Source: an uncultured Chloroflexota bacterium (GTDB taxonomy: Bacteria > Chloroflexota > UBA11872 > VXNJ01). From it: a stretch of DNA of 35,048 bases. The translations under genes were made by a program, and so were the position numbers. The DNA is taken from assembly GCA_964474495.1 (NCBI GenBank), contig CAYYTN010000001.1, positions 14,740 through 49,787 of the forward strand. Reading direction: 5' to 3'. Positions 5,400 to 27,461 of this stretch are shown piece by piece. A model generated the notes under the pieces. It made no database searches, had not been told where the DNA came from, and saw nothing but the letters and a program-made list of their open reading frames with translations. The stretch's first letter is position 1. Each line of letters starts with the position of its first letter.

Positions 5400-7067
5400 T
5401 TGAACGTGCTCGGACTGACGGCCACGATTTCCTGGAATACGGCCGCGGCGCTTATTCAAGATGGGAGGGTGGTGGCCGCGGCGGAGGAGGAGCGATTCAA
5501 CCGGGTCAAACAGGCTCCCCGGATGCCGCCGGTGCAGTCGGCTGAATTCTGCCTCAAGTTCGCGGGACTAACGGCCACGGATATCGACTATGTGGCGGTG
5601 GGGTTTGCGGCGCCGTCTCGATATGCGTTCTTGCGCGCGATTGGCACGCTTCGAGACCTGGAATTTGAGAACTTCCTCCACACGTTTCCTTCCCTCGGTG
5701 AGTACTTGATTCAGCAGTACAAGTTGCGCCGCGATCTGGAGGAAGCGATTCCCGGTATCACCGGCAGGCCCTGGGTCTACGTACGCCACCATGTTGCCCA
5801 TGCCGCCAGCGCGTTGTACGCCTCGGGTTTTACCGAAGCCAGCGTTCTGACGATTGACGGTAATGGTGAGAATGACAGCGGGTTGCTGGGAGTGGCCGAG
5901 GGCGGCAAGCTGAAGGTTCTGGGGCGCAAGCTGGCTCCGGAGTCGCTGGGGGGCCTGTACAGCAACGCCACCCATCAACTCGGGTTTGTGCGCCATGTCG
6001 AAGAAGGTAAGACCATGGGACTGGCGGCGTACGGCGAGCCCGTTATCGAAATAGAGGGGCTTCGCGTTGGAAGTGATTCCTACGAGATGGATCGTCGCTT
6101 CCTGATCTCAGGATTCTGGGAAGGTCTGGGGGAACCGCGTCGGTCCGGTGAGGAAATCACCGACGGGCATAAGGATCTCGCGTCGAGCGTCCAGAATGCC
6201 CTTGAAGAGGCCGGAAAGGCCTTGGCGCGCGGTCTGTACGAGGCCACCGGAAAACGAGCACTCTGCCTGGCCGGCGGGGTGGTTCTCAACTGCGACATGA
6301 ACGCCAAGATTCTGGGGCTCGATTGCGTGGACGATGTTTTCATTCAGCCAGCGGCGCACGATGCGGGGACGGCACTGGGTGCGGCGCTGGAGGTGGCTGC
6401 CCGGCACGGAGATCCGACGAACTTTGTCATGGAGCATGCATACTGGGGTCCGGAATACGGCAGCGAAGAGATACAGGCGTTCCTTGACGAGGCAAAAGTT
6501 GCGTATTCGCGTCCTCCTGACATTGAGCAGGCCGTGGCGGAGCGGCTGGCCGCGGGGGATATCGTGGGCTGGTTCCAGGGACGGATGGAGATTGGCCCGC
6601 GAGCCCTGGGGGGACGGAGCATCCTGGCGAACCCGGCGATGCCCGAGATGAAGGACAAAGTGAACGCCGAGGTGAAACACCGTGAGGGCTGGCGGCCGTT
6701 CGCTCCTTCCATCCTTGAAGAAGAAGCCTCGAAGCTTGTATTCGATTCGTATCCGTCGCCGTTCATGCTGCTCACCTTCACCGTGAGACCGGAATGGCGC
6801 GAGCAACTCGTTGCGTCGATGCACGTAGACAACACGGTGCGCTCGCAGACGGTCTCAAAGAAGACCAACCCGCGATATCACGGCATGATCAGTAAGTTTT
6901 ACGAAATCACCGGCGTGCCGGCGGTGCTGAATACGTCGTTCAACGATCGTGGCGAACCGATCGTTATGACACCGCAGGACGCGGTGCGGTGCTTCTCGAG
7001 CACGGGCCTGGATCACCTGGCTGTCGGCGACTTTCTGATTTCAAAAGAGCGCGGAGACACCGGCTAG
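5400..7067 (+). CDS. NodU/CmcH-family carbamoyltransferase
   Basis: 555 aa. N-terminus LGLTATISWNTAAALIQDGRVVAAAEEERFNRVK. Further motifs are RHHVAHAASA, GRMEIGPRALGGRSILANP, WRPFAPS and NTSFNDRGEPIV. TTG start at 5400, preceded by GAGGAG (5386..5391) at 8-nt spacing. Confidence 0.9.
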   Translation: MNVLGLTATISWNTAAALIQDGRVVAAAEEERFNRVKQAPRMPPVQSAEFCLKFAGLTATDIDYVAVGFAAPSRYAFLRAIGTLRDLEFENFLHTFPSLGEYLIQQYKLRRDLEEAIPGITGRPWVYVRHHVAHAASALYASGFTEASVLTIDGNGENDSGLLGVAEGGKLKVLGRKLAPESLGGLYSNATHQLGFVRHVEEGKTMGLAAYGEPVIEIEGLRVGSDSYEMDRRFLISGFWEGLGEPRRSGEEITDGHKDLASSVQNALEEAGKALARGLYEATGKRALCLAGGVVLNCDMNAKILGLDCVDDVFIQPAAHDAGTALGAALEVAARHGDPTNFVMEHAYWGPEYGSEEIQAFLDEAKVAYSRPPDIEQAVAERLAAGDIVGWFQGRMEIGPRALGGRSILANPAMPEMKDKVNAEVKHREGWRPFAPSILEEEASKLVFDSYPSPFMLLTFTVRPEWREQLVASMHVDNTVRSQTVSKKTNPRYHGMISKFYEITGVPAVLNTSFNDRGEPIVMTPQDAVRCFSSTGLDHLAVGDFLISKERGDTG

Positions 7068-7071
7068 CGTC

Positions 7072-9834
7072 ATGATCTCACGGCCGATGCGCGCCCTCGG
7101 CCAAGCCCCGGCGTTACGCGGGCACGGTCCGTGGGTGGTTTTCGGGTTTGTGGTGGTCGCTGCGGTCTGGGTGAAGCTGATCACCATGCCGGGCGAGCTT
7201 CTGCAGCGTGATCTTGAGTACCCGCTCGTCTCCGACTACGTCCTGGATGATTTCTATCCAATGCTGGCTTCGGACGGACGGAGCGCGCTGGGTCATATGA
7301 GTCTTACGCCGGTGATGGGGTTGGTGGGGGTGCTGCTGGAAGGGATCGGCGGTACATCGGGCGCGATGATCCGCGGGCTCGTCGTCGGGCAGTCGCTGGC
7401 CGCTTTCGCATCGATGTATCTCCTGTTCCAGCTGGTGGCGGAGAGGGGCGCTACCCAGGTCTTACCGACCAGAGTGGGTGGGCTGGCAGCGGGGTTGTTC
7501 TACGCGCTGAACCCCTGGGCCATCGCGCGGGTGGAACACCTAGGCCTGTTGATCGGCTATTCCCTGCTGCCGCTGGTTTTGGGATTGGCGCTACTGGCAG
7601 TGCGACGGGGTTCGGCGCGGTTCGCCGTTGGGGCCTCGCTGGCGTTCTGGTTCACGGCGGCGAGTCCCCACTACCTGGTCTTCACGACTGCCATCCTGGC
7701 CGCACTCGCCCTCTACTACCTGATGGGTGCGAGGACCTGGGGCGCAGCCCGCCTGATGATTCGCCTCGGTGCGGTCGGGATGGCCACAATCGTTGGCCTG
7801 GTGATGTTTCTGGTACTGCCGACGCTGGCGTCATCCTGGTTGAGTGGAGGCCTGCCGGCCGAGATTGCCGCGGGTGCGGACGATCTGGCGATTCGGGATG
7901 GCGCGGCCTCCCGGTTGGAGATAATTACGTTGACGAGCAACGCGGTCTGGTCGGATGTGATGCGCCCCGCCGGGCAAGCCGGCTGGGCGTGGATGATGGT
8001 TGCCTTGCTACCGGCCGGAAGCCTGGTCTGGGTGTCCTTCTTCGGTAGACCTCGCGCCGGGGTTGGGATGCTGCTGCTGGCGCTCGCGGTGGTGGTGGTC
8101 ACGGTCGAGGTGTTGGTGGTCAGGGAAGCAGGATCGGGGGCAACGGGGTTTGTAGTTTCACGAATTCCCGGTGGACGCGCCCTGCGCGAGCCGGACAAGC
8201 TGTCGGGCCTGCTGGCGCTGGCGTTCGCCTGGGGCGTGGGAGGAGTTGTGGGGATGCTCGTGTGGTCGCTTACAGGCTCGGCACACAGGGCTGGGCAGAG
8301 GCTCGGGATTTCTGTGTTGTTGGTTGCGCTGGTGCTCGCGGCAACGGCGATGCTCACGCCAGCGATCCGCTATTTCCTTTGGACAGAGGGGGTTGCGAAC
8401 TGGCTGCCCCACTCCTGGCCGACCGGGTACGAGCGGCCGCTGGCGGCGTTGCGCGATGCGGAAGGGGCGACACGGACGGTAGTTTTCGAGAGAGATGAAC
8501 GCGTGCCCATCTGGGACGACACCAGGGTGCTGCGTCAGCCGGTATCGCGCTCCCTGGCCGGAGTGCCAACCGTGGGTTGGCGCCACGGCGGGAACAGCGT
8601 GTTCTTGAGCGGTCTCCTGCAACTGGAGGGCGCAGATCTGGTCCGCGCAATCCGACTGGCCGGAGCTGATCGTTTGCTGGTGGTGCACGATACAAGGGAA
8701 GGGGCCGAACTAAACGAGCGAGTGGCGAGGACGGGTGAGTTCGAGGTGCTGGTGGCGGATGAATACGTAACCCTATACAGCAGTGGGGAGGTGTTCGGCG
8801 GTTCGGGCTACGCCGCCGGCGGCTGGTGGCCGGTTTACGGTCTGAACGGCGCGGCGGCCGGAGCGTTCGGGGTAGAGCCGGCTCTGATGGTGATTGCCGA
8901 TGCCGGGGCATCGGGCTGCCCGGCGGAACTTGCGGCCCTGCCGATGATTGGCTCCACTCCCGTTTCGGGAGCCCTCCCGCCGTGCACGTTGCCGGATCGA
9001 CTGATCCGATTGCATCCCGAAACGGAAGAAGCCAACGAGTGGGAGGCGACCGGGGGATCGGCGGCGGAGCTGTCCCGTTGGTCCCAGGCGACAGGGCGGC
9101 AGGATCTAACGGCGCGGGAATATGACTACGGGTTGGGTTTCGCCTGGATCGAACCGGGACTCCCGGAAGGGCGGAACGCGATCTTCCCGGTGGGGCAGGT
9201 GGAGGTGGGCGCGCCGCTGTACCTGCGAGCGTTGGTTGGCGGGGCGGCGGCGGCATTGGAAGTGGAGGTGCTGGATTCTTCTGGTGCGACGCTGGCCAGG
9301 ACTGACGTTGCAGCGGATGGGGAGCCGCGGCTCGAATGGGTGCCGATCACGATCGTCGAGGGAGGGGGCTCGTTGCGGCTTCGGATTACGGCCGCCGAGG
9401 GCTTCGGTGCGGTGAACGCGGTGGCCCTGGGTAGCCGTATCTTCGGGCCGGCGATAGTGGAAACGGCTGCGGAACTGCCCACGGCCGTGCTGGTTCGGCG
9501 AGAGTCAAGAACACAACTGAAGGCCACGGTCGAGGGTTCGTCCGGGGCCTTTGCGCTGGTGGTAGCGGAAAACTACTCGCCCGTCTGGCGGGCGAGATAT
9601 CCGGGCGGAGAGGCATTGCCCTTCCCGGCTGGTTACGCACGAATGGGTTTTATGATCCCGGCTGCCGGCGATTTTGAAATAACGGTCGACTTCGTGCCTC
9701 AGGGTTGGCACGACGCGGGATTGATTGTTTCGGGAGTGACGTTGGCGGGCGCGGTTGCGTACCTGATTTGGCCGATGGCAGGGTGGGTGATTCAGATGGG
9801 GCGGCGGGCGAGGCAGACCACCGAAGTGCCGTAG
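7072..9834 (+). CDS. Giant GT-C fold membrane glycosyltransferase, divergent AftD/DUF3367-like paralog (920 aa)
   Basis: The ATG lies 4 nt after the carbamoyltransferase stop. The N-terminal ~430 aa are multi-TM, with QRDLEYPL in the first loop, FYALNPW and ALREPDKLSGLL. The C-terminal module is VAENYSPVWRA...GYARMGF...DFVPQGW plus a terminal TM helix, shared with the three larger paralogs. Confidence 0.7.
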   Translation: MISRPMRALGQAPALRGHGPWVVFGFVVVAAVWVKLITMPGELLQRDLEYPLVSDYVLDDFYPMLASDGRSALGHMSLTPVMGLVGVLLEGIGGTSGAMIRGLVVGQSLAAFASMYLLFQLVAERGATQVLPTRVGGLAAGLFYALNPWAIARVEHLGLLIGYSLLPLVLGLALLAVRRGSARFAVGASLAFWFTAASPHYLVFTTAILAALALYYLMGARTWGAARLMIRLGAVGMATIVGLVMFLVLPTLASSWLSGGLPAEIAAGADDLAIRDGAASRLEIITLTSNAVWSDVMRPAGQAGWAWMMVALLPAGSLVWVSFFGRPRAGVGMLLLALAVVVVTVEVLVVREAGSGATGFVVSRIPGGRALREPDKLSGLLALAFAWGVGGVVGMLVWSLTGSAHRAGQRLGISVLLVALVLAATAMLTPAIRYFLWTEGVANWLPHSWPTGYERPLAALRDAEGATRTVVFERDERVPIWDDTRVLRQPVSRSLAGVPTVGWRHGGNSVFLSGLLQLEGADLVRAIRLAGADRLLVVHDTREGAELNERVARTGEFEVLVADEYVTLYSSGEVFGGSGYAAGGWWPVYGLNGAAAGAFGVEPALMVIADAGASGCPAELAALPMIGSTPVSGALPPCTLPDRLIRLHPETEEANEWEATGGSAAELSRWSQATGRQDLTAREYDYGLGFAWIEPGLPEGRNAIFPVGQVEVGAPLYLRALVGGAAAALEVEVLDSSGATLARTDVAADGEPRLEWVPITIVEGGGSLRLRITAAEGFGAVNAVALGSRIFGPAIVETAAELPTAVLVRRESRTQLKATVEGSSGAFALVVAENYSPVWRARYPGGEALPFPAGYARMGFMIPAAGDFEITVDFVPQGWHDAGLIVSGVTLAGAVAYLIWPMAGWVIQMGRRARQTTEVP

Positions 9835-10595
9835 GGAACGTCCCAGCGCGCCACTACCGGTGCTTCGGCGGCGAAGATGGCGTACAGGATCGGGTTCAGC
9901 AGACCGGGCAGAAGCCGGTTTTCGGATCTTGCCGCCATACCGGTCAGACGCAGAACTCGCCGGGCGGCCAGGATGGGGAGTGCCAGCGCAATGTTCATGC
10001 ACGTTGATCGGACGACTTGAAGGCCGGAAGCCACCAGGCGCTCTTCGATCATGCTCCGGGAGTAGCGACGATGGTGGCCGGACACCTCGTCCTGCCAGCC
10101 CCACAGCGAGCGGAAGGCGGGGACCACGACGACCGCCAGTCCGCCGGGTTTCAGGACGCGGCAGATTTCGGCGGCGGCATCCGGATCGTCGGGAATATGC
10201 TCGAGGACATCAGTGGCCAGGACAGCGGCAAACGCCTGATCGCGAAACGGAACCGCGACGGCATCGGCTAGGGTCTCGGCGGAGTAGCCGGCTTCGCGAC
10301 TGAGAGCCAGCGCTTCGAAGGATGAATCGAGTGCGAACTGCGGACGGGCAAATTGCTCTAGCAGGTCCCGGTTGGTGCCGGGACCGCTGCCCAGATCGAG
10401 TATCGGGCCGGCGGGGATGGAATTCAGGTGGGGACGTAGCAAACTGCCCAGGACCGTGCGCCGGCCGCGGTACCACCAGTGGCGTGACTTGATTGCGTGC
10501 AGCTCGCCTACGAGGTCGGGGTGCATGTTCGGCTGTTCATCCATGTTTCGGAGATTGTGGGTTGAACCCGGGGCGTGACTGCCGCCCTCCATCAT
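9792..10595 (-). CDS. Class I SAM-dependent methyltransferase
   Basis: 267 aa, with HWWYRGRR, ILDLGSGPGTN (motif I), ATDVLEHIPDD and VLKPGGLAVVVVP. Several in-frame Met codons could serve as the start. The 3' end overlaps the 7072..9834 gene by 43 nt (convergent). Confidence 0.85.
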   Translation of the reverse strand: MMEGGSHAPGSTHNLRNMDEQPNMHPDLVGELHAIKSRHWWYRGRRTVLGSLLRPHLNSIPAGPILDLGSGPGTNRDLLEQFARPQFALDSSFEALALSREAGYSAETLADAVAVPFRDQAFAAVLATDVLEHIPDDPDAAAEICRVLKPGGLAVVVVPAFRSLWGWQDEVSGHHRRYSRSMIEERLVASGLQVVRSTCMNIALALPILAARRVLRLTGMAARSENRLLPGLLNPILYAIFAAEAPVVARWDVPYGTSVVCLARRPI

Positions 10596-10759
10596 GGAGA
10601 CGGCGCGCCTCTTTTGCCAGCGGCGGGAGGACCAGTTTCGGGAGAGGCCGATTGCCCGACCGTCCGCTGGTCAAGAATAGTTTCGCTGAACAGCTTTGCA
10701 CCGCCGGTTGTTCGTGGTGGTGACGACACTTCGGGCGGATGAGGTAGAGCGCGTAGCGG

Positions 10760-10765: not shown

Positions 10766-10922
10766 CTCGCACTGATGGGAGCGTGGCGCCGACGCTGCGC
10801 CACTTGCACCAAACGGATGGCACGCGATTGATCACGATCCAGATTGATAGATCTCCCCGATCCCGCGTATGGGCGCGGACCGGGCGCCCCGTCCTGTTGC
10901 CCGGTCGAGGGATCGCGACCTA

Positions 10923-11921
10923 ATGATCGAGTTTTCGGTGGTAGTACCTCTTTACAACGAGGCCGGTAACGTTGCGCGGCTGGTTACCGAACTGGTGGAG
11001 TCGTTGTCCGGGCGGGACTTCGAGATAGTGCTGGTAGATGACGGTTCGGATGACGGCACCGTCGCTGAGCTGGCGAAGGTGGCCGGGGAGGAGCCTCGCG
11101 TTCGGGTCGTGTATCTAACTAGGAACTTCGGTCAAACGGCCGCCCTGGCGGCCGGTCTGGCCGACGCGACTGCCGAGACCATCGTCACGATGGATGGCGA
11201 TCTGCAGAATGATCCATCCGACATTCCGGGGCTTTTGGACAAATTGGACGAAGGCTTCGACGTGGTCAGTGGCTGGCGCCGGGAACGCACTGGCTCATTT
11301 GTGTCGAGGCGTCTGCCGTCACGGATCGCGAATTGGATGATCAGCCTCGTTGTGGGGGGAAGGGTGCACGACAACGGCTGCGGACTCAAGGCATACCGGC
11401 GCGAACTTTTGGAACAGCTCCAGCTCTACGGAGAAGGGCACCGCATTTTGATGGCCCAGGCGGTGGAACTCGGTGTGAGGATCGCGGAAGTGGAGGTGGC
11501 GGATCGGGCGCGAAGTTACGGGGCCTCGAAGTATGGAATCTCACGGACCTACAAGGTCTTGCTGGATCTGCTTGCGTTGAAGTTCTTGTCTTCCTACGCG
11601 TTCAAACCGATACGGGTTTTCGGCGGAATCGGATTCATTTTCCTGGCGGCATCGCTTCTCCTGGGAGCGGGCCTCATAGTCTGGCGACTGTTGGGCGAAG
11701 GATTCATCATCCAGACGCCGCTGTTGTTGGTGGCCGCGGTTCTTTTTATTGTGGGAGTCTTCCTCGTCTTGCAGGGATTGCTCGCGGAATTGACGGTTCG
11801 CCTGTACCACGAGGTCCACGGTGGGCCTATCTACCGAACGAGGGTTCCTGTCCTGAGGTCGGCGGAGGATCAATCCGGCGAGAACAAGCCGGATCACGAT
11901 CCTTCCGACGGCGAACGATGA
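10923..11921 (+). CDS. Polyprenyl-phosphate glycosyltransferase, GT2 (GtrB/ArnC/DPM1-like)
   Basis: Motifs FSVVVPLYNE, EIVLVDDGSDDGT, LTRNFGQTAALAAG, VTMDGDLQNDP, DVVSGWRRER and RIANWMI, followed by two C-terminal TM helices. This is the ArnC/GtrB layout. ATG 10923 is preceded by GAGGGA (10907..10912). The track start at 10869 only adds an Arg-rich extension. Confidence 0.9.
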   Translation: MIEFSVVVPLYNEAGNVARLVTELVESLSGRDFEIVLVDDGSDDGTVAELAKVAGEEPRVRVVYLTRNFGQTAALAAGLADATAETIVTMDGDLQNDPSDIPGLLDKLDEGFDVVSGWRRERTGSFVSRRLPSRIANWMISLVVGGRVHDNGCGLKAYRRELLEQLQLYGEGHRILMAQAVELGVRIAEVEVADRARSYGASKYGISRTYKVLLDLLALKFLSSYAFKPIRVFGGIGFIFLAASLLLGAGLIVWRLLGEGFIIQTPLLLVAAVLFIVGVFLVLQGLLAELTVRLYHEVHGGPIYRTRVPVLRSAEDQSGENKPDHDPSDGER

Positions 11922-14900: not shown

Positions 14901-15009
14901 GAAGCGGCGCGAGTCCAAGTACCAGGATCAAGACGAAGTCGCCGATCGGCGCCCGACGGTTGATCCGCCCGAACCAGCCGGCCAGGGCGTGCGTCACGAA
15001 TGGATCCAA
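11827..15009 (-). CDS. Giant GT-C fold membrane glycosyltransferase, AftD/DUF3367-like (1060 aa)
   Basis: Motifs NSEDLMVP (first loop), FYMFN, FFWIIRSPWFKFSF, IRFVSDWTWYQGLVDPYRTYA, a large non-membrane region, FNESFHEQWVA...DDYANAY...FQPQGW and a terminal TM. The track start is TTG with no clear SD, so the start is uncertain by a few codons. Confidence 0.8.
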   Translation of the reverse strand: MDPFVTHALAGWFGRINRRAPIGDFVLILVLGLAPLLWFREGQLLNSEDLMVPPNWDEFTQFWYVWNDQLGTGAQKILDSGRFPTLFIAAALQGLGVGIVGAQMAQFVVWFTIPGLSMYYLMVGVYQGDQRRLVRMAAVLFYMFNLWLISNWLGYKEPMIAAVAVMPFLIGLWVRVFSSGTGYLRAVLISALMSLAAAPIGNNVSEMILAIVPVPLLFLTVALSAAARRRWPALGRVLMAGLSLSIVLPLLHAFWIVPEIAGIKAAQASDSFPEFQRTSRQFLEGQSLYTSIGNNIRFVSDWTWYQGLVDPYRTYAARFAGSMLLVLLGLTTFALVLLGAIRGRGKYKGYFVLLTGIGLIAGAGLNSPLGPAYAWAVDNLPFFWIIRSPWFKFSFLTVIGYAVLIGLSAPTLIRFAEFALVRVVGIWSNRAAARGAVFCAFALYFAVGPLYAYPLTFGLAFPTAGERTFLNPNHAGPPVYVYEAADWINRQPGDFRIMTIPGDSPWLSEWGYTGFGSFLQTLTTHPVIFKRSTENTKISQGAPNASERLVERIEADLLDELSEAAPALLSRLGVRYLVHERDVRYDFYQGSGYRVTDSPENVERILANAPGVIRVATFGKWDIYEVETPRPRFTIASEITAVANLDARRVALLASPDANPNTVFVASEDLPAAAESLLTGQASDGRISSGRSDLQSVVFADTADLEGSVRAAAPGLSISYGDPTTWGQFEDLTPGHTWRWFTLNNGEHYLASNESNTPVLAELSLSVFSYARARSFFVYLNSELLSVTEVPPDTPTAIRVPALRIHPGENVISFYSPHPSDLRGGQNAAFAVRGDPGLSRAIFEWRPATPPGEYRLQVSFRPFGDLDWPGGRPNPLIIAVDGRATFMDPQEGSVSLFGTTLHLTGTSSITIPQLGQEDYFLELIPDSVRQSPPKSGAVTVLRASPTGYSVDVNCDSPCVLVFNESFHEQWVASSGGWPLPHFQVDDYANAYLFEPSDNGLVEINFQPQGWFSAAVVVSAMTAAVTALALIIVRRRKDRDPACSRRIDPPPTSGQEPSFGR

Positions 15010-15051
15010 TCGGGTTGTCGGCTCGATCGCGGGGAGGCTGCGGCGGGCGCG

Positions 15052-18537: not shown

Positions 18538-18544
18538 TTTCAGG

Positions 18545-19642
18545 CTACGCCTCGGAACGCAGTGAGGCGGCCATGCCGAGGAGCAGGGCCAGCCCGAGCG
18601 AGATCTCGGCGAGTGCCCCGGAAACATTGCCCGCGTCGTCCATCTTCAGCAGCGCAAAGCCGATGGACAGCCCGAGGAGGGTCAGAGTGGCGGCCAGGAG
18701 CGGTGGCCACAGCACCGCGGGGAGGAGCATCTTTCTGAGGGGGACCTTCCGCGTTCCCTGGTTGTGAACCCAGCGATATGCCAGCCAGATCATCAGGAGC
18801 GCGGTGTCCAGGAGCCATGCGTAGGCCAAGGCCGTATTCCAATAGGTGGCGATGAGGGTGGACTGCAAGCCCTCGCCGAACTGCTCGGCGAAGGTCGCGG
18901 CAGCGGCCGTCAAGATGAGGGCCATCATGACCGGCACGAGGGCGATGAATGGAAGCGGGGAAATGACGGTGGCTCGGATATGCCGCAGGGTCAATGCACC
19001 GAGTGCTATCCCGCCGGCGCTGGCGACGGCAATCGCCAGGACGTAGAGCGCCGATCGGATCGGGTCGACCCCGATGGTGTCGCGCATAAGCGACCAGGCG
19101 CTCACGGAGGCGATTGGCGAGACCAGCGCTCGGAGATCGGGAAGGGTATCGGCGCCGTTGATTGTCAGCTGGTTTGGCGGCAGGTCGTAGAGGTGTTCGC
19201 TGCCTAGGACAACAAGGCCGCCTGGAGAATAGGCGGCCACTTCCATCTCGTACTCAAGGTACGGCCCATCGTCGGCCGGGATTGGTGGCAACGGGATCGC
19301 GGTCACCACCTGGTGGTTTGGGCCGTTGGTACGCTGAACGGACTCTCGAAGGATCTCACGATCACCCCCCGACCGCCGAATCCGCAGGTTGACGTAGGCT
19401 AGCCGCCGAGAATCAGAAGGTCGCACGAGGGCTGCAAAACCGGATATATCCCCAATTTGCGTTTCGATACGCTGGCTCACGCTGCCACCAGGCTCCAGGT
19501 ACACCACTTCTTGATAGGCCCGCTCGATCTCCCAAAGTTGTACGTTGCGACGAAGGGTGAGTTGACTTACAACTGCGATTACGGCGAGAAGAGCTAAACC
19601 GGCCCAAGCTGCCAGGGTGAATACTCGACGGCGCCCGGTCAA
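18545..19642 (-). CDS. Polytopic membrane protein of unrecognised family (paralog B of three), embedded between two giant GT-C genes
   Basis: 365 aa. TM anchor FTLAAWAGLALLAVIAVV. The domain carries VYLEPGGSVSQRI, DISGFAALV, VNLRIRRSGG and PIPADDGPYLEYEMEV, followed by ~5-6 hydrophobic helices. The TTG start overlaps the upstream TGA (TTGA). Confidence 0.7.
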   Translation of the reverse strand: MTGRRRVFTLAAWAGLALLAVIAVVSQLTLRRNVQLWEIERAYQEVVYLEPGGSVSQRIETQIGDISGFAALVRPSDSRRLAYVNLRIRRSGGDREILRESVQRTNGPNHQVVTAIPLPPIPADDGPYLEYEMEVAAYSPGGLVVLGSEHLYDLPPNQLTINGADTLPDLRALVSPIASVSAWSLMRDTIGVDPIRSALYVLAIAVASAGGIALGALTLRHIRATVISPLPFIALVPVMMALILTAAAATFAEQFGEGLQSTLIATYWNTALAYAWLLDTALLMIWLAYRWVHNQGTRKVPLRKMLLPAVLWPPLLAATLTLLGLSIGFALLKMDDAGNVSGALAEISLGLALLLGMAASLRSEA

Positions 19643-22600
19643 GACGCGGTGTCTTCTGGGGGACGGGTCCTACGGGCCACCCGGTCGCGTGCAAGCCTTA
19701 TCAGTAATAGCGATACCAGGGCGGCGATGCTAGCGGCGGAGATATTTCTGGTGGCGTCGGCGAGAGGCTGTAGGTTGAATTTGAACTCGATTTCGTACTC
19801 TCCGACTTGGTCGACAAAGAAGCCATTGGCAAACCCATTCACTTTCAAATGAGGTTCAACTGGGACCCCATTGATAGTGGCTTCCCAACGGTCGTCGAAC
19901 AGTTCGTTGAGCATGATCATGGTCGGACGCTCAGTTCGCACGGACGCGCGGATAAGGCTGCTGGAAATGGATTCATACTGGATGACCAGATCCTGGTGGT
20001 CGGTGATTTCCGATCGGATGGGCACCAGTGTCACGGGAATGGATGCACCCAGTTTCTGGTCGATGATCAGTGTGTGTGGCCCGGCCGAGAGATTCACGGT
20101 GGTCGTCGCGATCCGAAACTTATCGTCCCCGGTGAGGACAGGGAGCAAGTCCTCCCCGTCGATAGTCAGAGCGTTCAGCAGATCGTGATGGTCAGGGCTG
20201 GCAGACGACTGGTACGTCAGATGGACCCCAAGGCGATAGTTGCCGCCCTCTGCAACATGGAAGGTTCGCTCGCGTTTGATCGTCCCGATCACGACCGGCA
20301 TTTCGTATTCGAAACTGGCAAAGCTCCCGTCCGACAGAAGCGCGTCTCCCTCAGGGGAGTAGAGATTCACAAAGGTTGTCCCAGGTTCAATGTCGATTGA
20401 GAGGACTAATACTTCCCGAGGTATCGAAGGCTGAAGGAGGAAGATCGAATGAAAGGCACCTCCCACGTTAATCCAAAGGGACCTGGGAATGGTCCCAATC
20501 GGGGTCGGCCGAAGAACCATGGCGATTGTTTGTGCAGATCCTGATTGGTTGGAAATCTCTAGGTGGGGTGAGTATTTCTGCACCGCTCGAAGGCGCCGTG
20601 TGCTTAATCCCTCGACTCCTGTCTCGAGCTCGTCCCAGTTATCTTTGAGCGCGATCGTTACCCGCATCTCGACCGGGAGATCGACAATATCTTGGGGAGT
20701 GATGCGGCCGAAAAGGTAGATGTAACTTGGGAATTGTTGTCCAGGGGTGAGACCGAGCTCAGAGCTGCCGGGAAACGCAACACTAGACTCGCTGTCCATT
20801 AGCATCTTATTGTCCAGAGCGATCCGATCGGCTGCGCGAACAAGGACGAGCCGAAGCCCGTCAGGAGCCGGCGAAGGGAATCCTAATTTGAGTGTGCTGC
20901 TGCCCTGAACCCCTTCAAAACTACCCCAGTAGACCCAGGAATCGGGAAGCTCGAATACATCGGCGAACGGGTCGAGGGTTAGCGGTTTGCCGTCGATGGA
21001 CGGAGCCCTAGGGCCTTTGGGGGTGGGAAACACATCTTGCCGAAGGAGTTCACGGTTGACAAAGTCGAACCCGGAAAGGCTAGAAGAGTTCGCCTCCGTG
21101 ACTAGCTCCCAAAGCTCGTACGTTCCGTCGACCGATATCTCCATGTCCACGGAGTTGGACCCCGGCGGAATAGTCAGGCTGCTCTCATTGCTCTTGAACG
21201 CAAGAAACTCGTTGAAACCATTCCCGAGGCGCAGGATGCTCGCCGGAGGTATATCTTTAGCGAACTGTGCGGTAGTGGAATCTTCCCCAGAAGGGTCGAT
21301 CATGACGATGGCAGGGTCAGGATCAGCCAGGCTGTTCGTAAGCGGACTAAGAGACTGGAGCCCGGTCAGCGTGAGAACTGTAAGCGGCGAACCCCAGACG
21401 AGGTCTCGAACATCGGGGACAGCGAAAAAAATCAGCGGACCAAAACGGGCCACCTCATCGATCCCTTGCCACTCCAGGACCCTATCAATGTACTCGTCTA
21501 AATTGTCCGCAAACTCCGGTCGGACGACATCGCGCTGGTGAAGGAAATAGCCGATGCCAGACCTCCCGGCGACCCGGGCAATGGGAACAGTCCGAGTGCC
21601 CAGCGTCTGGGCATACAGGTAGGCTTGCATCTCAGACGGTTCGACCAGATTGATGAAGGGCTCGGTAGTTAGCTCGCCGACCGGTGGGATGTAGCCGGTA
21701 TAGCCCCAATCGGTCGTAAGCCGTAGCGCAGGAGGGAACGAGAGCACGCGGTAGTCGCCCGGGTGTTCATTCATCCAGGCCGCTGCCTCGACAAGATAAT
21801 CTGGCATCTGAACTTGAAGGGTGCTCAGGGGAGAATCTAGGGGACGCTGAATGAAGAAGCGCCCCCGGACGATGGGCATTGTGTACAGGAGATAGAGCAC
21901 CGCCAGGAGCAAAGGGAAGCTCGCTGACAGGGTCCGGGCGGTCCGCCCATAGCGGAGACCGAAGCGCGAGCTGGCCAGGAACTGGCCTATGGATGCCGTG
22001 GTCGCGGCGACGAAGAGACCGGCCAATGGCGCAAAGCCAAGGATTGTCAGGGAAGTGGCTTTGTACCAGGGGCTCCGCAGGACCCAGAAAAGAGGCACAT
22101 TTTTCCACAGCAAAGCGAAGATCGGACCGAACGGACCGTTGATGCCACTGCCCAAGACTAGCCCGAGGAATGCCACGAAGCCGAAATACAGACATTTGCG
22201 ATCTCTCTGGACGGCGAGACCGCCAAGGGCAACCAGTGGAAGCAGGAAACTCCCGACGATAAGTAGCGGATTCTGAAAGTACCCCGCCGCGTAGGGAACA
22301 TACGGGACGCCTTTGAAGCCGCCGTACCAGACCCAGGCGCCCTGCATCCGCCAAACATTGAGCGGATTGGTATAGCTGGAGAGGTGAGTGAGTTGGGCAA
22401 GTCCAACGTCCTTCGTGCGACCGATAAAATTTTGTCCCGGTCCGCCGGTAATGAGTCCGACGGACTGCGGTACGAGCCAGTAGGCGTTGACTGCCACGAT
22501 AAGAACCAGGGCGATTGACGCCAGCATGAGCATTCGACGTGCTTGCAGGGCCCGGCCGGTCGCGAATCGATGGATCATATACATGATCATGTAGAGGGGA

Positions 22601-23229
22601 ACGGGGATCATCGCGATCAGGGCCATGGGCGGGTTGGCTCCGACACCAGATCCGACCACGGTAATCAAAGCTATAAGGGCCGCACTAGTCAGCAATCGAC
22701 CATTCCGCGTGAATGAAATGGTCACTGCCAGGGAAAGCGGTAGTGCGACTAATGCGCTGAGGTTGGCAATGTTGACGCCCTGCCAGAGTGGTTCCTGATA
22801 GAAATTGAACATGTAAACGAGGCTGGCGGCTACCCACGCTATTCGGGAAGTGGTCAGGTACTGCATTAGGACGTACATGGAGAGCCCCACAGCCGACAAC
22901 CAAAGTGCGAACTGGAGCCGCTGGGCAAGCTCGATGGATGCACCGACGGCACGGAACAGGGCGGGCCAGAAGAGGAAGAACACCGCAGGCAGACGATCAT
23001 CGGGGCTTGAACCGAAACCGACGCGGGATTGCCAGGTGCTAAAAAATTCTGCCCATTGATCGAGAGTCATAGGGAGGATGAAATCTTCGGCCTTGGCCAC
23101 GTAGCCTGACTTTACCCAGAACAGCGGCGCGAGCCCGGCTAGCAGAACGACAGCCAGGGCCGGGGACGGCAGAAAACGCTGTCCGAGGGAGATCCAGCGG
23201 CGTTGGGGCACTACCGATGGCCTAGTCAT
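19639..23229 (-). CDS. Giant GT-C fold membrane glycosyltransferase, AftD/DUF3367-like (1196 aa)
   Basis: Motifs KAEDFILP, VYMFN, LFWVLRSPWYKATSL, WRMQGAWVWYGGFKGVPYVPYA, LNELFDDRWEA...NGFANGF and a terminal TM. The ATG overlaps the upstream carbamoyltransferase stop by 8 nt. G+C is visibly lower than in its paralogs. Confidence 0.8.
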   Translation of the reverse strand: MTRPSVVPQRRWISLGQRFLPSPALAVVLLAGLAPLFWVKSGYVAKAEDFILPMTLDQWAEFFSTWQSRVGFGSSPDDRLPAVFFLFWPALFRAVGASIELAQRLQFALWLSAVGLSMYVLMQYLTTSRIAWVAASLVYMFNFYQEPLWQGVNIANLSALVALPLSLAVTISFTRNGRLLTSAALIALITVVGSGVGANPPMALIAMIPVPLYMIMYMIHRFATGRALQARRMLMLASIALVLIVAVNAYWLVPQSVGLITGGPGQNFIGRTKDVGLAQLTHLSSYTNPLNVWRMQGAWVWYGGFKGVPYVPYAAGYFQNPLLIVGSFLLPLVALGGLAVQRDRKCLYFGFVAFLGLVLGSGINGPFGPIFALLWKNVPLFWVLRSPWYKATSLTILGFAPLAGLFVAATTASIGQFLASSRFGLRYGRTARTLSASFPLLLAVLYLLYTMPIVRGRFFIQRPLDSPLSTLQVQMPDYLVEAAAWMNEHPGDYRVLSFPPALRLTTDWGYTGYIPPVGELTTEPFINLVEPSEMQAYLYAQTLGTRTVPIARVAGRSGIGYFLHQRDVVRPEFADNLDEYIDRVLEWQGIDEVARFGPLIFFAVPDVRDLVWGSPLTVLTLTGLQSLSPLTNSLADPDPAIVMIDPSGEDSTTAQFAKDIPPASILRLGNGFNEFLAFKSNESSLTIPPGSNSVDMEISVDGTYELWELVTEANSSSLSGFDFVNRELLRQDVFPTPKGPRAPSIDGKPLTLDPFADVFELPDSWVYWGSFEGVQGSSTLKLGFPSPAPDGLRLVLVRAADRIALDNKMLMDSESSVAFPGSSELGLTPGQQFPSYIYLFGRITPQDIVDLPVEMRVTIALKDNWDELETGVEGLSTRRLRAVQKYSPHLEISNQSGSAQTIAMVLRPTPIGTIPRSLWINVGGAFHSIFLLQPSIPREVLVLSIDIEPGTTFVNLYSPEGDALLSDGSFASFEYEMPVVIGTIKRERTFHVAEGGNYRLGVHLTYQSSASPDHHDLLNALTIDGEDLLPVLTGDDKFRIATTTVNLSAGPHTLIIDQKLGASIPVTLVPIRSEITDHQDLVIQYESISSSLIRASVRTERPTMIMLNELFDDRWEATINGVPVEPHLKVNGFANGFFVDQVGEYEIEFKFNLQPLADATRNISAASIAALVSLLLIRLARDRVARRTRPPEDTAS

Positions 23230-25138
23230 CTCGGGTCTTGGAGATCATGTAGGGCCCGATGGATAGATTCCGTAGACCCGAATCCACGAATGTCTTCACG
23301 GCGTCGGCCGCGTTGCATACAACCGGCTCACCATGGAGGTTGAAACTGGTGTTCAACACCGCCCCGATGCCGGTCATGCCCTCGAACGCTTTGATCAGCC
23401 CGTGGTATTCGGGATTGTCTGATTGCCGCAGGATCTGGGGGCGCATCGTCTTGTCGAACGGATGGATCGCGGCCGCCAGGCTGTCGTGTGCCTCGGGCAC
23501 TGTTTCGAAGGCCGTCATCATGTGGGGCGAGGGCACCTGCCCAGGATTCTTGATGTAGCGGTCCTGGCTCTCGTCCAGGACGGTCCCGGCGAACGGCATC
23601 CAGAAGTCACGTTGCTTGATCTGATGGTTGATGATGGGCACCACTTCGGGGTCTGAAGGGTTGGCGAGGATGGAGCGGTTGCCCAGCGCGCGGGCACCAA
23701 ATTCCATCCTGCCTTGGCATCGGGCGACAATCTGGCCGTCCTGCAGCATTTTGGCCGTTTCCAGATCCACGTCTTCCGGTTGGCGCACCCCGCAGGTTTC
23801 AGCCAACCCGAAATCGCGGATGGCACCGTCGATTTCGGCGGGGACCAGGTCGGGGCCAAGGTAGAGGCTGTCCAGCGGCGCCGGCGTCTTTCCGGTGAGG
23901 AGTTGATAGCCGTTGTAGGCGGCGCCGATCGCGGTTGATTCGTCTCCGGCGCTTGGGCACACGCCGAAATGCTGGAGTCCAGGTAGGTCCTTCAGAAGCA
24001 TGTTGGCCTTCACGTTCATGAAGACGCCACCGGCGGCAAGCAGGTTCACCGCTCCCGTCTCCCGCAGGGCATTTCGGGCAAACTTTTCCATCAAGTCTTC
24101 GCAGTGTTGTTGGGCTGCCCCGGCAACCCAATCAAACCGTTGGCGACGTAGGGCGGCCTCCAGGCGATGTCCGGCAGCCCGGGTCGAGGTCGGCCCTCGA
24201 AACTGCAGCCCGTCTACATGAAGCAGTTCCTGAAAGATCGGCAGAACTCGTTTCACGCCCTCTTCGTCCGCGTAGGGAGCCAGCCCCATGACTTTGTATT
24301 CGTGCTCCCCAGCCTTCATTCCCAGAGCGCGGGTGACGAGGGTGTAGAAGATGCCAAGGGAATAGAGGTTGGCGGTTTTGGCGACCCGGGTCATGGTGCC
24401 GTTCTCGGCCACGGAAACTGTGGCGCAACAATCATCGCCGGCGCCGTCCAACGTGAGTACGAGCGTCCGCCCACTCGGAGTCGGTCCAAAGAAAAGGGCC
24501 GATGTTGCGTGGCAGAGATGATGGTCGGCAGACTGGATCTTCGATTCCGGCAGGCCCAGCTCTTCGGCCAGGTCACGGTATTGAATCCGCCGCAAACGCG
24601 GCCAAACCGTCGGAGCGTAGACGCGCTCGTAAACGTTCTTTTCCAGGACATCCAGCACCCGCGAGGCCACCCGGTTCGAATTTCCCATGCCGTATATGAA
24701 CTGTGCGCTGCGATGCACCGCACGACGCAGTGAGGTGACCCGGCGGGCGCCGGTCTCGGCGGCCTGAGTGGCCGGATCGACGTGATCGATGGCCACGCCA
24801 AAGTGGGGGTATGGGTTCTTGTAGGTCAGAACAACAAGGTCTAGCCGTTCCGACGGAATCCCGGCGAAATCGAGGACATATTGGATCGCCTGCCGCGGAT
24901 ATCCGGTGTCGTTCTTGAATCGGGTGAACCGCTCTTCACTGGCGACGGCGATTATCTCCCCGTCGCGCAACAGTGCAGCTGTGCAGTTGTGCGCCTCGCT
25001 GATTCCGAGAATGTAGGTCGGGCTTACGGCGTGATCCGCCGAGTTTCCGTCTCTGGCCAAACTGGTCCCTAAGCTCTTTGTGCAGGCCACGTTTGCCGGT
25101 GCACCCCCGGTGGAAGATGCCTTCCGGTATGGCAACAA
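23222..25138 (-). CDS. NodU/CmcH-family carbamoyltransferase (second copy)
   Basis: Motifs YILGISEAHNCTAALLRDGEIIAVASEERFTRFK, DHHLCHATSALFF, GRMEFGARALGNRSILANP, WMPFAGT and NTSFNLHGEPVV. The start is uncertain: the track start at 25138 is TTG, and an in-frame TTG at 25060 lies closer to the conserved N-terminus. Confidence 0.9.
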   Translation of the reverse strand: MLPYRKASSTGGAPANVACTKSLGTSLARDGNSADHAVSPTYILGISEAHNCTAALLRDGEIIAVASEERFTRFKNDTGYPRQAIQYVLDFAGIPSERLDLVVLTYKNPYPHFGVAIDHVDPATQAAETGARRVTSLRRAVHRSAQFIYGMGNSNRVASRVLDVLEKNVYERVYAPTVWPRLRRIQYRDLAEELGLPESKIQSADHHLCHATSALFFGPTPSGRTLVLTLDGAGDDCCATVSVAENGTMTRVAKTANLYSLGIFYTLVTRALGMKAGEHEYKVMGLAPYADEEGVKRVLPIFQELLHVDGLQFRGPTSTRAAGHRLEAALRRQRFDWVAGAAQQHCEDLMEKFARNALRETGAVNLLAAGGVFMNVKANMLLKDLPGLQHFGVCPSAGDESTAIGAAYNGYQLLTGKTPAPLDSLYLGPDLVPAEIDGAIRDFGLAETCGVRQPEDVDLETAKMLQDGQIVARCQGRMEFGARALGNRSILANPSDPEVVPIINHQIKQRDFWMPFAGTVLDESQDRYIKNPGQVPSPHMMTAFETVPEAHDSLAAAIHPFDKTMRPQILRQSDNPEYHGLIKAFEGMTGIGAVLNTSFNLHGEPVVCNAADAVKTFVDSGLRNLSIGPYMISKTRDD

Positions 25139-27423: not shown

Positions 27424-27461
27424 TTCACCCTGCCTGATCGGAGGCGGCCGCGCTCAGGCCG

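Follow-up and report, generated by a model that had tools for sequence, protein, structure and literature searches.

Why should a gene for a carbamoyltransferase (CT) stand directly ahead of a gene for a giant membrane glycosyltransferase of the GT-C type, and why should this happen twice on opposite strands of one locus? The question is raised by a 35,048-nucleotide stretch of DNA from an uncultured, probably marine Chloroflexota bacterium, here called the window, which belongs to a locus for a cell-envelope glycan. A first-pass annotation had proposed that each CT tailors a donor or acceptor handled by its partner GT-C. The genes relevant to this proposal are the following.

2542..4113, plus strand: g03, SAM methyltransferase fused to a GT2 akin to the polyprenyl/dolichyl-phosphate hexose transferases
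4176..5246, plus strand: g04, SDR-family nucleotide-sugar enzyme, GDP-L-fucose-synthase-like
5400..7067, plus strand: CT1, TobZ/NodU-type carbamoyltransferase of 555 aa, predicted cytoplasmic, clade A
7072..9834, plus strand: GTC1, 920-aa membrane protein, divergent AftD-like GT-C
9792..10595, minus strand: SAM methyltransferase (Pfam Methyltransf_11/23), convergent with GTC1, whose 3' end it overlaps
10869..11921, plus strand: ArnC/GtrB/PgfS-like GT2 whose C-terminus carries TM helices, candidate synthase of a polyprenyl-phosphate sugar
11827..15009, minus strand: AftD-like giant GT-C of 1060 aa, final gene of the minus-strand operon, without an adjoining CT
15052..18627, minus strand: AftD-like giant GT-C paralogue, ORF of 1191 aa, without an adjoining CT
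18545..19642, minus strand: g_18545, 365-aa membrane protein encoded between GTC2 and the next GT-C of the operon, conserved in this position
19639..23229, minus strand: GTC2, AftD-like giant GT-C of 1196 aa, first GT-C of the operon
23222..25138, minus strand: CT2, TobZ/NodU-type carbamoyltransferase, clade B, ORF of 638 aa
25238..26296, plus strand: SAM methyltransferase (Pfam Methyltransf_23, E 2.5e-23), divergent from CT2 with a 99-nt spacer
26263-27423, minus strand: GNAT acetyltransferase (Pfam), candidate donor-sugar synthesis gene
27462-28439, minus strand: ArnA-C-domain/UDP-4-keto-pentose-synthase-like SDR, candidate donor-sugar synthesis gene
32735-34078: Wzx-like (MOP/Wzx) protein with 12-13 TM segments

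Both CT-giant GT-C pairs were found on opposite strands as annotated, and direct reading of the junctions confirmed their coupling. The CT1 stop codon TAG at 7065-7067 is followed by 'cgtc' and the GTC1 ATG at 7072, giving the claimed 4-nt gap, and on the minus strand the end of CT2, '...CGA GAT GAC TAG', overlaps the start of GTC2, 'ATG ACT AGG', by the claimed 8 nt (ATGACTAG). A five-gene operon starts with CT2 and continues with GTC2, the membrane protein g_18545 and two further GT-Cs; in it, g_18545 overlaps the end of GTC2 by 4 nt and the true start of the 15052..18627 gene probably lies downstream of 18627. On the plus strand, g03 is probably the first gene of a g03-g04-CT1-GTC1 unit; the g03-g04 gap is 62 nt and g04 ends 153 nt 5' of CT1. 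Several neighbors keep their places elsewhere: the g03 synteny and the convergent methyltransferase/GTC1 layout are found in locus L001, a g04-type gene also precedes CT1 in L001-L003, a homologue of g_18545, which itself had no match in a Pfam search, occupies the equivalent position in L090-L096 and L103, and orthologues of the 15052..18627 gene hold the equivalent operon position in L090-L098. Homologues of the 25238..26296 methyltransferase lie beside GT-C arrays in many loci, and an SDR-GNAT pair like that at 26263..28439 stands immediately 5' of the CT in L005. When the order and strand of all 21 window genes were shuffled, both CTs fell directly 5' of a same-strand giant in 0.7% of trials; conservation in other genomes is a stronger argument against chance than this result.

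Judged by sequence, CT1 and CT2 are complete TobZ/NodU-type enzymes. The Pfam domains Carbam_trans_N and Carbam_trans_C are matched at E 4e-43 and 2e-70 by CT1 and at E 1e-34 and 4e-58 by CT2, CT1 matches TobZ (3vex) at E 8e-111, and CT2 matches the PDB carbamoyltransferase 7xb6 at E 3e-59 and TobZ at E 5e-59. All residues invariant among 26 diverse CTs are kept in both proteins, and no TM-like segments were seen in either. The annotated CT2 ORF is probably too long: its homologues measure 606-614 aa, and a start at TTG 25060 would give 612 aa. Since their scores against the NCBIfam NodU equivalog (160 and 90 bits) are far under the cut-off of 1000, neither is a NodU orthologue. The annotation of the two CTs as homologous yet divergent agrees with their 32% identity across 612 aligned columns, and both motif pairs quoted for them were found. 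In neighbor-joining trees of CTs and of GT-Cs, both without support values, CT1 falls in clade A and CT2 in clade B of the CT family; because of this separation and the low identity, the possibility that the CTs are recent duplicates unrelated to the GT-Cs, which had been named as one way to refute the proposal, is ruled out.

Identification of the giants is less direct. The 11827..15009 protein matches PF11847 (GT-C_AftD) at E 4e-12 and 45 bits, over the 26-bit cut-off, and is a paralogue of the products of the 15052 and 19639 genes; the 15052..18627 protein is, over its full length, 32% identical to it and 26% identical to GTC2. GTC2 scores slightly under the cut-off (E 5e-6, 25.2 bits) and GTC1 had no match in Pfam and PDB sequence searches, so the GT-C label of these two needed profile and structural evidence. 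The GTC2 family profile (A2) matches the AftD structures 6w98 and 6wbx at E 2e-9, and residue D49 of GTC2, in the first loop, is invariant. GTC1 runs from a multi-helix domain at the N-terminus through a beta-rich ectodomain to a TM anchor at the C-terminus; its family (A3) aligns with A2 over residues 44-408 (hhalign probability 99%, E 3e-18), and its AF2 model, which is of moderate confidence only (pLDDT 59.5, pTM 0.57), has AftD 6w98 as its best Foldseek match (E 1e-10), followed by STT3 and PglB. On this profile and model evidence GTC1 is a remote AftD-like homologue. For all four giants of the window, the evidence supports both a GT-C fold and a relationship to AftD; the initial assignment of GTC1 and GTC2 stands, but the giants number four rather than two, and only two of the four have CT partners.

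By profile matches, the locus also holds parts for a lipid-linked donor: ArnC-like and AglJ/Dol-P-hexose-transferase-like GT2s, SDRs and the Wzx-like protein. In g03, Pfam finds Methyltransf_23 and Glycos_transf_2, and the best NCBIfam profile is AglJ (E 1.5e-23), with Dol-P hexose transferase and ArnC also matched, all under curated cut-offs. The 10869..11921 GT2 (Glycos_transf_2, E 2e-35; TM-like segments at residues 253-283) matches ArnC at E 2e-50 over profile positions 7-307 of 316 and PgfS at E 2e-41, each under cut-off. For g04 the matches are Pfam Epimerase (E 6e-54) and, under cut-off, NCBIfam GDP-L-fucose synthase (E 5e-85), and for the 27462-28439 SDR they are NCBIfam UDP-4-keto-pentose/UDP-xylose synthase (E 1e-60) and ArnA (E 4e-54).

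The CT-GT-C adjacency, on whose conservation the proposal depended, is kept in related and in distant genomes. Among CT-sampled loci, all sampled members of the CT1 clade (the window, L001, L004/L010, L005, L007, L011, L125, L126 and L127) have AftD-like GT-Cs adjoining or within 8 kb, whereas none of the 78 genome loci of other CTs (identity 48% or less) has one within the available flanks (Fisher test uncorrected for phylogeny, p = 2e-12 for GT-C presence and 3e-6 for direct adjacency). The CT lies directly 5' of the GT-C in five of these CT1-clade loci, with the window and L001, its relative at 89%, taken as two, and in one more only a second CT stands between them. Among GT-C-sampled loci, GTC2 orthologues at 84, 66, 45 and 38% identity still have a clade-B CT directly 5', and both CT types stand in tandem ahead of one GT-C in L108 and L125. 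The linkage occurs in Chloroflexota, Nitrospinaceae, Omnitrophica and Actinomycetes; same-strand direct adjacency with overlaps or gaps of 102 nt or less recurs in the first three lineages, and such tight adjacency is seen in two CT clades. In the immediate outgroup of the CT1 clade (L128, whose CT has one member of its 90% protein cluster named Nanoarchaeia), the CT directly follows a PMT_2-type GT-C, and PMT_2 proteins lie within two genes of four more distant CTs.

The exclusivity at the clade level, the recurrence of tight adjacency across lineages and CT clades, and the different GT-C family beside the outgroup CT all speak against generic operon packing, in which the CTs would tailor a nucleotide sugar or a cytoplasmic lipid-linked oligosaccharide for Leloir GTs (GT2/GT4) and stand next to GT-Cs through dense packing. 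We consider this explanation possible but rather unlikely. Leloir GTs are indeed encoded (GT2; GT4 in related loci), and a nucleotide sugar or lipid-linked oligosaccharide bearing a carbamoyl group could serve them without any involvement of the GT-Cs; most members of the wider CT family reside in ordinary Wzx/Wzy-type loci. Exceptions to the pairing also favor generic packing. The slot 5' of the giants is often held by SAM methyltransferases or GT2s, and also by small membrane proteins or other GT-Cs; the CT is missing at some GTC2 orthologues (L094/L095, L098); and the clade-A CT precedes a GT4 or a methyltransferase, not a GT-C, in L126 and L127. In the neighbor-joining tree, the GT-Cs that accompany CT1-clade enzymes form a polyphyletic set of paralogues, which also favors generic packing, so the two families show no strict co-diversification.

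Gene order varies as well: the CT is 3' of the GT-C in L116 and L127 and divergent from it in L011 and L126, another gene intervenes in L102, CT-CT-GT-C is a further layout, and clade-B relatives at 44-46% identity (L123, L124) have no adjoining giant GT-C. The first-pass idea of a fixed module thus survives as a recurrent, conserved linkage that is neither obligate nor one-to-one, and the statement that each CT serves its partner was too strong. The association is best stated at the level of the CT clade and the GT-C array.

Carbamoyl phosphate, ATP, SAM and acetyl-CoA are found only in the cytoplasm, GT-C active sites face outward, and GT-C donors are polyprenyl-phosphate-linked sugars. The topological argument of the first-pass annotation (CT cytoplasmic, GT-C site outward) holds as established biochemistry, and given the location of these cosubstrates and the nature of the donors, the decorations would therefore precede flipping of the sugar. 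Building on the observed gene identities, junctions and conserved association of CT clades with GT-C arrays, we give about an even chance to a model in which the CTs pre-decorate polyprenyl-phosphate- or nucleotide-linked sugars and, after flipping, the GT-Cs transfer them outside. The four AftD-like GT-Cs would assemble or decorate a glycan outside the cytoplasmic membrane as follows: i) SDR enzymes would supply a nucleotide sugar; ii) ArnC/AglJ-like GT2s would load it on polyprenyl phosphate; iii) CT1 and CT2 would carbamoylate it from carbamoyl phosphate and ATP via carbamoyl-AMP, as TobZ does, while methyltransferases, GNAT and the radical-SAM enzyme may attach other groups; iv) the decorated lipid-linked sugar would be flipped; and v) the GT-C accepting that donor would transfer it to the growing glycan. 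Placing the CT gene immediately 5' of the GT-C gene, with a 4-nt gap or an overlap, would let the tailoring enzyme and the GT-C acting on its product be expressed together. We infer three points of this model: that the CTs act on the donor and not on the acceptor, that their substrate is carried on a lipid instead of a nucleotide, and that O-carbamoylation is the reaction.

The same topological logic would apply if the CT carbamoylated a lipid-linked primer oligosaccharide, built on the cytoplasmic face, that the GT-C recognizes or extends after flipping, for instance via a CBM-like ectodomain. AftD-type enzymes bear carbohydrate-binding modules for complex acceptors (bioRxiv 10.1101/2019.12.22.885152), WapO (PA5005) of Pseudomonas, a putative LPS core heptose carbamoyltransferase, acts on a lipid-anchored oligosaccharide (PMC8005017), and the window encodes a Wzx-like protein. 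We nevertheless regard acceptor tailoring as improbable: no polyisoprenyl-phosphate priming transferase (PGT) was identified within the window and the locus has many ArnC/AglJ-like monosaccharide-loading GT2s, although the present evidence does not distinguish donor from acceptor. By analogy with the ACP bound to AftD and Emb proteins, the CT might instead serve the GT-C mainly as a subunit for binding or regulation on the cytoplasmic side, the tight translational coupling at the 4-nt junction and 8-nt overlap then reflecting stoichiometric complex formation. Cytoplasmic ACP does regulate AftD (bioRxiv 10.1101/2019.12.22.885152), and an ACP/KAS-III/MBOAT set lies beside the AftD-like gene in L126. 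Such a role is very doubtful, however, as the retention of all family-invariant residues in both CTs argues for catalysis and an obligate complex would not fit the variable gene order well; neither a CT-GT-C fusion nor any other sign of interaction turned up, the sole long homologue (P0085) having an intein and no GT-C domain.

Several known systems resemble parts of the locus. CT1 and CT2 share with TobZ, NodU, CmcH, GdmN and NovN the two-domain architecture (Kae1-like N-domain and YrdC-like C-domain), strong sequence matches and the family-invariant residues; those known enzymes act on secondary metabolites or Nod factors, whereas CT1 and CT2 are encoded beside GT-Cs in a locus for a cell-envelope glycan. 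WapO, one precedent for the preferred model, is likewise a carbamoyltransferase-family protein of a cell-envelope glycan cluster and acts on a lipid-anchored glycan from the cytoplasmic side, but the LPS core is built by Leloir GTs without a GT-C partner. The giants resemble mycobacterial AftD (6w98, 6wbx; PF11847/DUF3367) in their N-terminal TM domain, large ectodomain and C-terminal TM anchor, in Pfam, profile and (for GTC1) best structural matches, and in a conserved first-loop acidic residue comparable to the essential D41 of AftD. They differ in being shorter (920-1196 aa vs about 1400 aa), only about 12% identical in structural alignment, and multi-copy beside CT, methyltransferase and radical-SAM genes, with no sign of decaprenyl-phospho-arabinose as donor; they also occur outside Actinobacteria, whereas AftD homologues were reported across Actinobacteria only (bioRxiv 10.1101/2019.12.22.885152).

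The three-component systems of extracytoplasmic glycosylation, together with the Gtr and Arn pathways, offer a further comparison. The former consist of a polyprenyl-phosphate sugar synthase, a flippase and a GT-C, and auxiliary enzymes that modify and diversify their lipid-linked donors provide a precedent (Kelly et al. 2024, PMC11127046). Common to these systems and the window are GT-Cs with outward sites, ArnC/GtrB/AglJ-like GT2s, an ArnA-C-domain-like SDR, a MOP/Wzx-like protein, and the principle of modifying a lipid- or nucleotide-linked donor with auxiliary enzymes in the cytoplasm, ahead of flipping. The window differs in that its auxiliary enzyme is a TobZ/NodU carbamoyltransferase, not reported in those systems, in its giant AftD-like GT-Cs, which occur as arrays of three or four paralogues in place of a single GT136/GtrX/ArnT-type enzyme, and in that no GtrA-type small flippase was identified. 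The recurrence of the CT-GT-C linkage in several uncultured bacterial phyla suggests, without proving, that carbamoyl-decorated surface glycans are built outside the cell, and the best reading of the CT/GT-C arrangement is as a putative variant of the known lipid-linked-donor/GT-C systems.

The window is a dense glycan-biosynthesis locus of ~61% G+C, and its two carbamoyltransferase (CT) genes lie in two gene runs on opposite strands, as follows.

Genes of the two CT-containing runs
plus strand, first gene of the CT1 run: g03, methyltransferase fused to an AglJ/Dol-P-hexose-transferase-like GT2
plus strand, after g03: g04, GDP-fucose-synthase-like SDR
5400-7067, plus strand: carbamoyltransferase CT1
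7072-9834, plus strand: giant membrane GT-C GTC1
11827-15009, minus strand: giant membrane protein
15052-18627, minus strand: giant membrane protein
18545-19642, minus strand: membrane protein g_18545
19639-23229, minus strand: giant membrane GT-C GTC2
23222-25138, minus strand: carbamoyltransferase CT2

The first-pass annotation had described each CT as tightly coupled to a giant GT-C, and both the ORF list and the junction reads match this literally. The CT1 stop codon TAG (7065-7067) is followed after a gap of 4 nt by the GTC1 ATG at 7072, and the minus-strand CT2 stop and GTC2 start share ATGACTAG, an overlap of 8 nt. CT1 and GTC1 end the plus-strand run g03, g04, CT1, GTC1; CT2 is the first gene of a five-gene minus-strand unit (CT2, GTC2, g_18545, and the giants at 15052 and 11827) whose genes overlap or are closely spaced. 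The annotated CT2 ORF is probably too long at its 5' end: homologues span 606-614 aa, and a TTG start at 25060 would give 612 aa. Both giants named in the annotation are present, but the window holds four giant membrane proteins of like topology, two of which adjoin a CT. Chance adjacency is ruled out by conservation across phyla and by a within-locus gene shuffle (p = 0.007 for both CTs falling directly upstream of a giant on the same strand).

By sequence, CT1 and CT2 belong to the TobZ/NodU/CmcH carbamoyltransferase family. Both score above the Pfam cut-offs for the Kae1/ASKHA-like Carbam_trans_N domain (PF02543, cut-off 24 bits; CT1 148.6, CT2 121.1 bits) and the YrdC-like Carbam_trans_C domain (PF16861, cut-off 27 bits; 235.9 and 196.4 bits), have no TM-like segments, and are matched by the solved O-carbamoyltransferases TobZ, GdmN and NovN at E values of 1e-110 to 1e-48. 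In an alignment of 26 diverse members including both proteins, all family-invariant residues are kept in each (H130, H134, D153, D321, K426, R428, N511, T512, S513 and N515 in CT1 numbering), comprising HxxxH and Asp positions in the N-domain and Lys/Arg and NTSxN positions in the C-domain, which probably correspond to the metal and nucleotide sites of TobZ. Scores against the NodU equivalog (NCBIfam NF041651, cut-off 1000 bits) are only 160 bits for CT1 and 90 bits for CT2, and the two are therefore not NodU orthologues. They are homologous but divergent, as had been noted, with 32% identity; this value and their separate clades in neighbour-joining (NJ) trees rule out a recent tandem duplication. 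A Rosetta-stone fusion of CT and GT-C was also sought, and the sole over-long CT homologue, P0085 (901 aa, 45% identity to CT1), has no GT-C domain; an insertion that resembles an intein and includes a LAGLIDADG domain splits its C-terminal domain.

All four giants begin with 9-12 TM-like segments, continue with a large region outside the membrane and end in a C-terminal TM anchor. The family GT-C_AftD (PF11847, formerly DUF3367, cut-off 26 bits) is matched by the 11827 protein at 45.2 bits and fell just short for GTC2 at 25.2 bits; the 15052 protein gave no PF11847 match in the Pfam search. These three proteins are paralogues at 26-32% identity. GTC1 had no Pfam, NCBIfam-level or PDB sequence match, so that the GT-C label holds for it through profiles and a structure model but not through a direct family match. 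Direct searches of the PDB with the GTC1 and GTC2 sequences gave nothing useful, and AftD was reached only by family profile and structure model. A nine-sequence AftD-like profile (A2) reaches the cryo-EM structures of AftD (chains of 6w98 and 6wbx, E 2e-9), and the profile of the GTC1 family (A3) matches A2 with 99% probability (E 3e-18) across the membrane domain. The AlphaFold2 model of GTC1 is of moderate confidence (pLDDT 59.5, pTM 0.57; membrane domain mostly 70-90), and among its PDB matches Foldseek ranks AftD first (E 1e-10), with STT3 and PglB next (E 1e-7 to 1e-5).

Taken together, the paralogy, profile and Foldseek evidence identifies all four giants as AftD-like GT-C proteins, with GTC1 as a divergent branch; the GT-C fold, a multi-helix N-terminal membrane domain plus an extracytoplasmic domain, fits all of them. 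An aspartate in the motif 'SED..LP' (D49 in GTC2 numbering) is invariant in 9/9 AftD-like giants, and the A3-A2 alignment places the near-invariant D47 of the GTC1 family on it. In AftD, D41, an acidic residue of the first extracytoplasmic loop, is essential; D49 and D47 may be its counterparts. To our knowledge, AftD-type GT-Cs have been studied solely as mycobacterial cell-wall arabinosyltransferases and drug targets. Run against 1.84 billion representatives, a profile of the 11827, 15052 and 19639 proteins matched 8,546 clusters with E <= 1e-3, of which 1,406 remain with E <= 1e-30. The homologues described in the AftD structure paper all come from Actinobacteria (bioRxiv 10.1101/2019.12.22.885152).

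Conservation of the pairing was sampled from both sides. Neighbourhoods of CT1 homologues were picked without reference to any GT-C and inspected singly; relatives of CT1 and of CT2 are called clades A and B, respectively.

Neighbourhoods of CT1 homologues (CT identity to CT1 in brackets)
L001, metagenome (89%): CT, then directly a GTC1-type protein
L004/L010, Chloroflexota MAG (63%): CT, then directly a GTC1-type protein
L005, source with a Nitrospinaceae-named member in its 90% protein cluster (55%): CT, then directly a standard AftD-like giant
L007/L008, Omnitrophica (54%): CT, then directly a standard AftD-like giant
L125 (52%): GT-C, 922-aa protein, GT2, clade-A CT, clade-B CT, GT-C
L127 (51%): CT 7 kb from a giant; giant, then clade-B CT
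L011 (50-51%): CT divergent from an adjacent GT-C array
L126 (50-51%): CT divergent from a GT-C array 4 kb away

The adjacency seen in the window recurs in other genomes, with Chloroflexota, Nitrospinaceae and Omnitrophica among these CT-first loci. In 78 further CT loci among those listed by the genome scan (37-48% identity; some short), an AftD-like protein was found by neither BLAST nor an HMM of 13 giants. The loci from the genome scan, at least 80, are a sample and not a census. Fisher tests of clade A against the distant CT loci gave p = 2e-12 for a giant being present and p = 3e-6 for direct adjacency; since the lineages are not independent, as the tests assume, these values only illustrate a clade-level trait. 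In locus L126 (1108-7896, GCA_040960375.1) the CT is divergent from a gene row that starts with an AftD-like GT-C and goes on with a 404-aa protein, an MBOAT, a KAS-III-like enzyme and a small PP-binding (ACP-like) protein. The set brings to mind mycobacterial AftD, to which an acyl carrier protein is bound (bioRxiv 10.1101/2019.12.22.885152).

From the GT-C side, a scan of metagenomes with the AftD-like profile, made without reference to CTs, yielded 32 loci. The operon order [CT]-GTC_A-g18545-like-GTC_B-GTC_C is conserved. The GTC2 orthologues of L090, L091 and L106 (83-84%), L097 (66%), L092 (45%) and L093/L096 (38%) each have a clade-B CT immediately upstream, and no CT was found at those of L094/L095 (35%) and L098 (39%). 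Other arrangements are clade-A CT, clade-B CT, GT-C (L108); CT, 273-aa ORF, three GT-Cs (L102); and GT-C followed by CT (L116). A SAM methyltransferase precedes the giant in L104, L113 and L007 and a GT2 does so in L114, L115 and L117; further giants are preceded by a g18545-like protein or another GT-C. In each of the orthologous operons (L090-L096, L103), a protein of the g_18545 type separates the first GT-C from the second. Within the window, g_18545 and the proteins at 728-2065 (minus strand) and 30035-30850 (plus strand) are weakly paralogous, without a Pfam family, each with an N-terminal TM helix, a ~150-aa ectodomain and a C-terminal TM bundle; a related domain is held by a 1281-aa protein of L001.

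In NJ trees all GT-C-linked CT1 relatives form one clade, clade A. Its immediate outgroup is the CT of L128, whose 90% protein cluster has a Nanoarchaeia-named member and which directly follows a PMT_2-type GT-C (L128:6270-9674). Four distant CTs (L034, L040, L072 and L075) likewise have a PMT_2 protein no more than two genes away. As these CTs fall outside the AftD-linked clade, the link of the CT family to GT-C enzymes may be broader than the AftD-like family. In the NJ tree of the GT-Cs, those partnered with clade-A CTs do not group together but are spread over the paralogue groups, and this polyphyly leaves strict co-diversification of the two families unsupported. In L123 and L124, clade-B relatives at 44-46% identity have no giant as a neighbour, and CT-CT tandems occur in L122 and L123. 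One clade-A and one clade-B CT precede a single GT-C in L108:2428-8946 and L125:8001-14480; the window instead carries the two types on opposite strands, each before its own GT-C.

We conclude that the CT/GT-C association is real, old and specific to two CT clades in several phyla. What is conserved is a CT clade together with a GT-C array rather than a fixed one-to-one pair, and adjacency of two genes should not be equated with a fixed module.

The remaining genes of the window bear on what the CTs might modify.

Other assigned genes of the window
10869-11921, plus strand: ArnC-like GT2 with C-terminal TM helices (ArnC E 2e-50 over full length)
26263-27423, minus strand: GNAT
27462-28439, minus strand: ArnA-C-domain/UDP-4-keto-pentose-synthase-like SDR
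30920-32560, minus strand: B12-binding radical-SAM methylase-like protein
32735-34078: Wzx/MOP-like membrane protein, 12-13 TM-like segments
three SAM methyltransferases

A GT2 of the GtrB/ArnC type is predicted by similarity to be encoded alongside the GT-Cs, the ArnC, AglJ and Dol-P hexose transferase scores of the window GT2s all being under the equivalog cut-offs; homologues of these polyprenyl-phosphate-type GT2s occur in L001, L004 and L007. The Wzx-like protein has no significant Pfam match, no GtrA-like small flippase protein was found in the window, and several further membrane proteins are without family assignment. The nearest matches of the SDR are UDP-4-keto-pentose/UDP-xylose synthase and the ArnA C-domain; together with the ArnC-like GT2 and the GNAT, the SDR makes up an Arn-like set that hints at an amino-pentose-type donor. 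DegT-type aminotransferases are encoded in L001, L004, L005 and L098 and are absent from the window. The closest family of the radical-SAM protein is the Sden_1168-type P-methyltransferases (E 1e-50, under cut-off), and similar genes recur in L004, L007, L091, L123 and L128, which points to unusual methylation of the glycan at carbon or phosphorus. The block 25238-30850 (methyltransferase, GNAT, SDR and the genes at 28436 and 30035) is a variable cassette within the locus: L091, a close relative, lacks it and has its radical-SAM gene beside the CT2 orthologue. Within this block, a 548-aa protein (28436-30082, minus strand) with 8-10 TM segments and no family match has homologues (33-43% identity) accompanying ArnA-C-like SDR, GNAT and/or CT genes in L005, L094 and L123, and could be a transferase, polymerase or flippase of these loci that has so far escaped recognition. 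At the left edge, a 158-aa plus-strand ORF (183-659) appears to be spurious; the actual gene lies on the minus strand (3-554), runs off the window, and is 71% identical to a 609-aa L001 protein with no Pfam match.

GT-C enzymes act at the outer face of the membrane on polyprenyl-phosphate-linked donors, and TobZ-type CTs require carbamoyl phosphate and ATP; carbamoylation must then precede flipping. The most economical mechanism would be that the CT carbamoylates a nucleotide- or lipid-linked monosaccharide donor before the flip, being co-expressed with the GT-C that uses the decorated donor, and that the flipped donor would be transferred outside by this GT-C. The CT may instead tailor the acceptor, serve Leloir glycosyltransferases of the same cluster, or be a structural partner of the GT-C. 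With SDR sugar enzymes and GT2s resembling ArnC and AglJ encoded in the locus, the likely CT substrate is a monosaccharide donor, nucleotide- or lipid-linked. Under donor carbamoylation, methyltransferases in the same slot upstream of giants fit a 'tailoring enzyme plus GT-C' logic. A stronger proposal, which we consider rather doubtful at present, is that the two CT clades are dedicated to polyprenyl-phosphate-linked monosaccharide donors and the arrays of AftD-like GT-Cs (and of PMT_2-like ones in relatives) are specialised to transfer carbamoyl-sugars outside.

AftD-like GT-Cs appear here as multi-copy arrays in marine and groundwater phyla without cultured representatives, genomically wired to carbamoyl-, methyl- and acetyltransferases. 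If the CTs pre-decorate lipid-linked donors, the cytoplasmic-modify/transfer-outside logic of the Arn, Gtr and GT136 systems would gain a new chemical group, a +43 Da signature would be predicted on envelope glycans along with CT activity on polyprenyl-phosphate sugars, and CT-clade membership would provide a genomic rule for finding such loci. If the clades are indeed dedicated in this way, uncultured Chloroflexota, Nitrospinota, Omnitrophota and Actinomycetota would make an unrecognised class of carbamoylated, methylated envelope polysaccharides, with 'tailoring enzyme plus GT-C' cassettes as the evolutionary unit of glycan diversification.

Full-text searches of a limited library returned no paper linking a carbamoyltransferase to GT-C enzymes or lipid-linked-donor pathways, and for DUF3367 only an unrelated annotation paper; within these limits the pairing appears undescribed, as had been supposed. 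We know of no member of the TobZ/NodU family for which polyprenyl-phosphate-linked monosaccharides are an established substrate class. The lipid-linked-sugar carbamoyltransferase MoeM5 acts in moenomycin synthesis. WapO, a putative core-heptose carbamoyltransferase, acts on the lipid-anchored LPS core (PMC8005017). In the three-component systems of Kelly et al., auxiliary epimerases diversify the lipid-linked donor (PMC11127046), and these systems share with the window a GtrB/ArnC-type GT2 encoded together with a GT-C.
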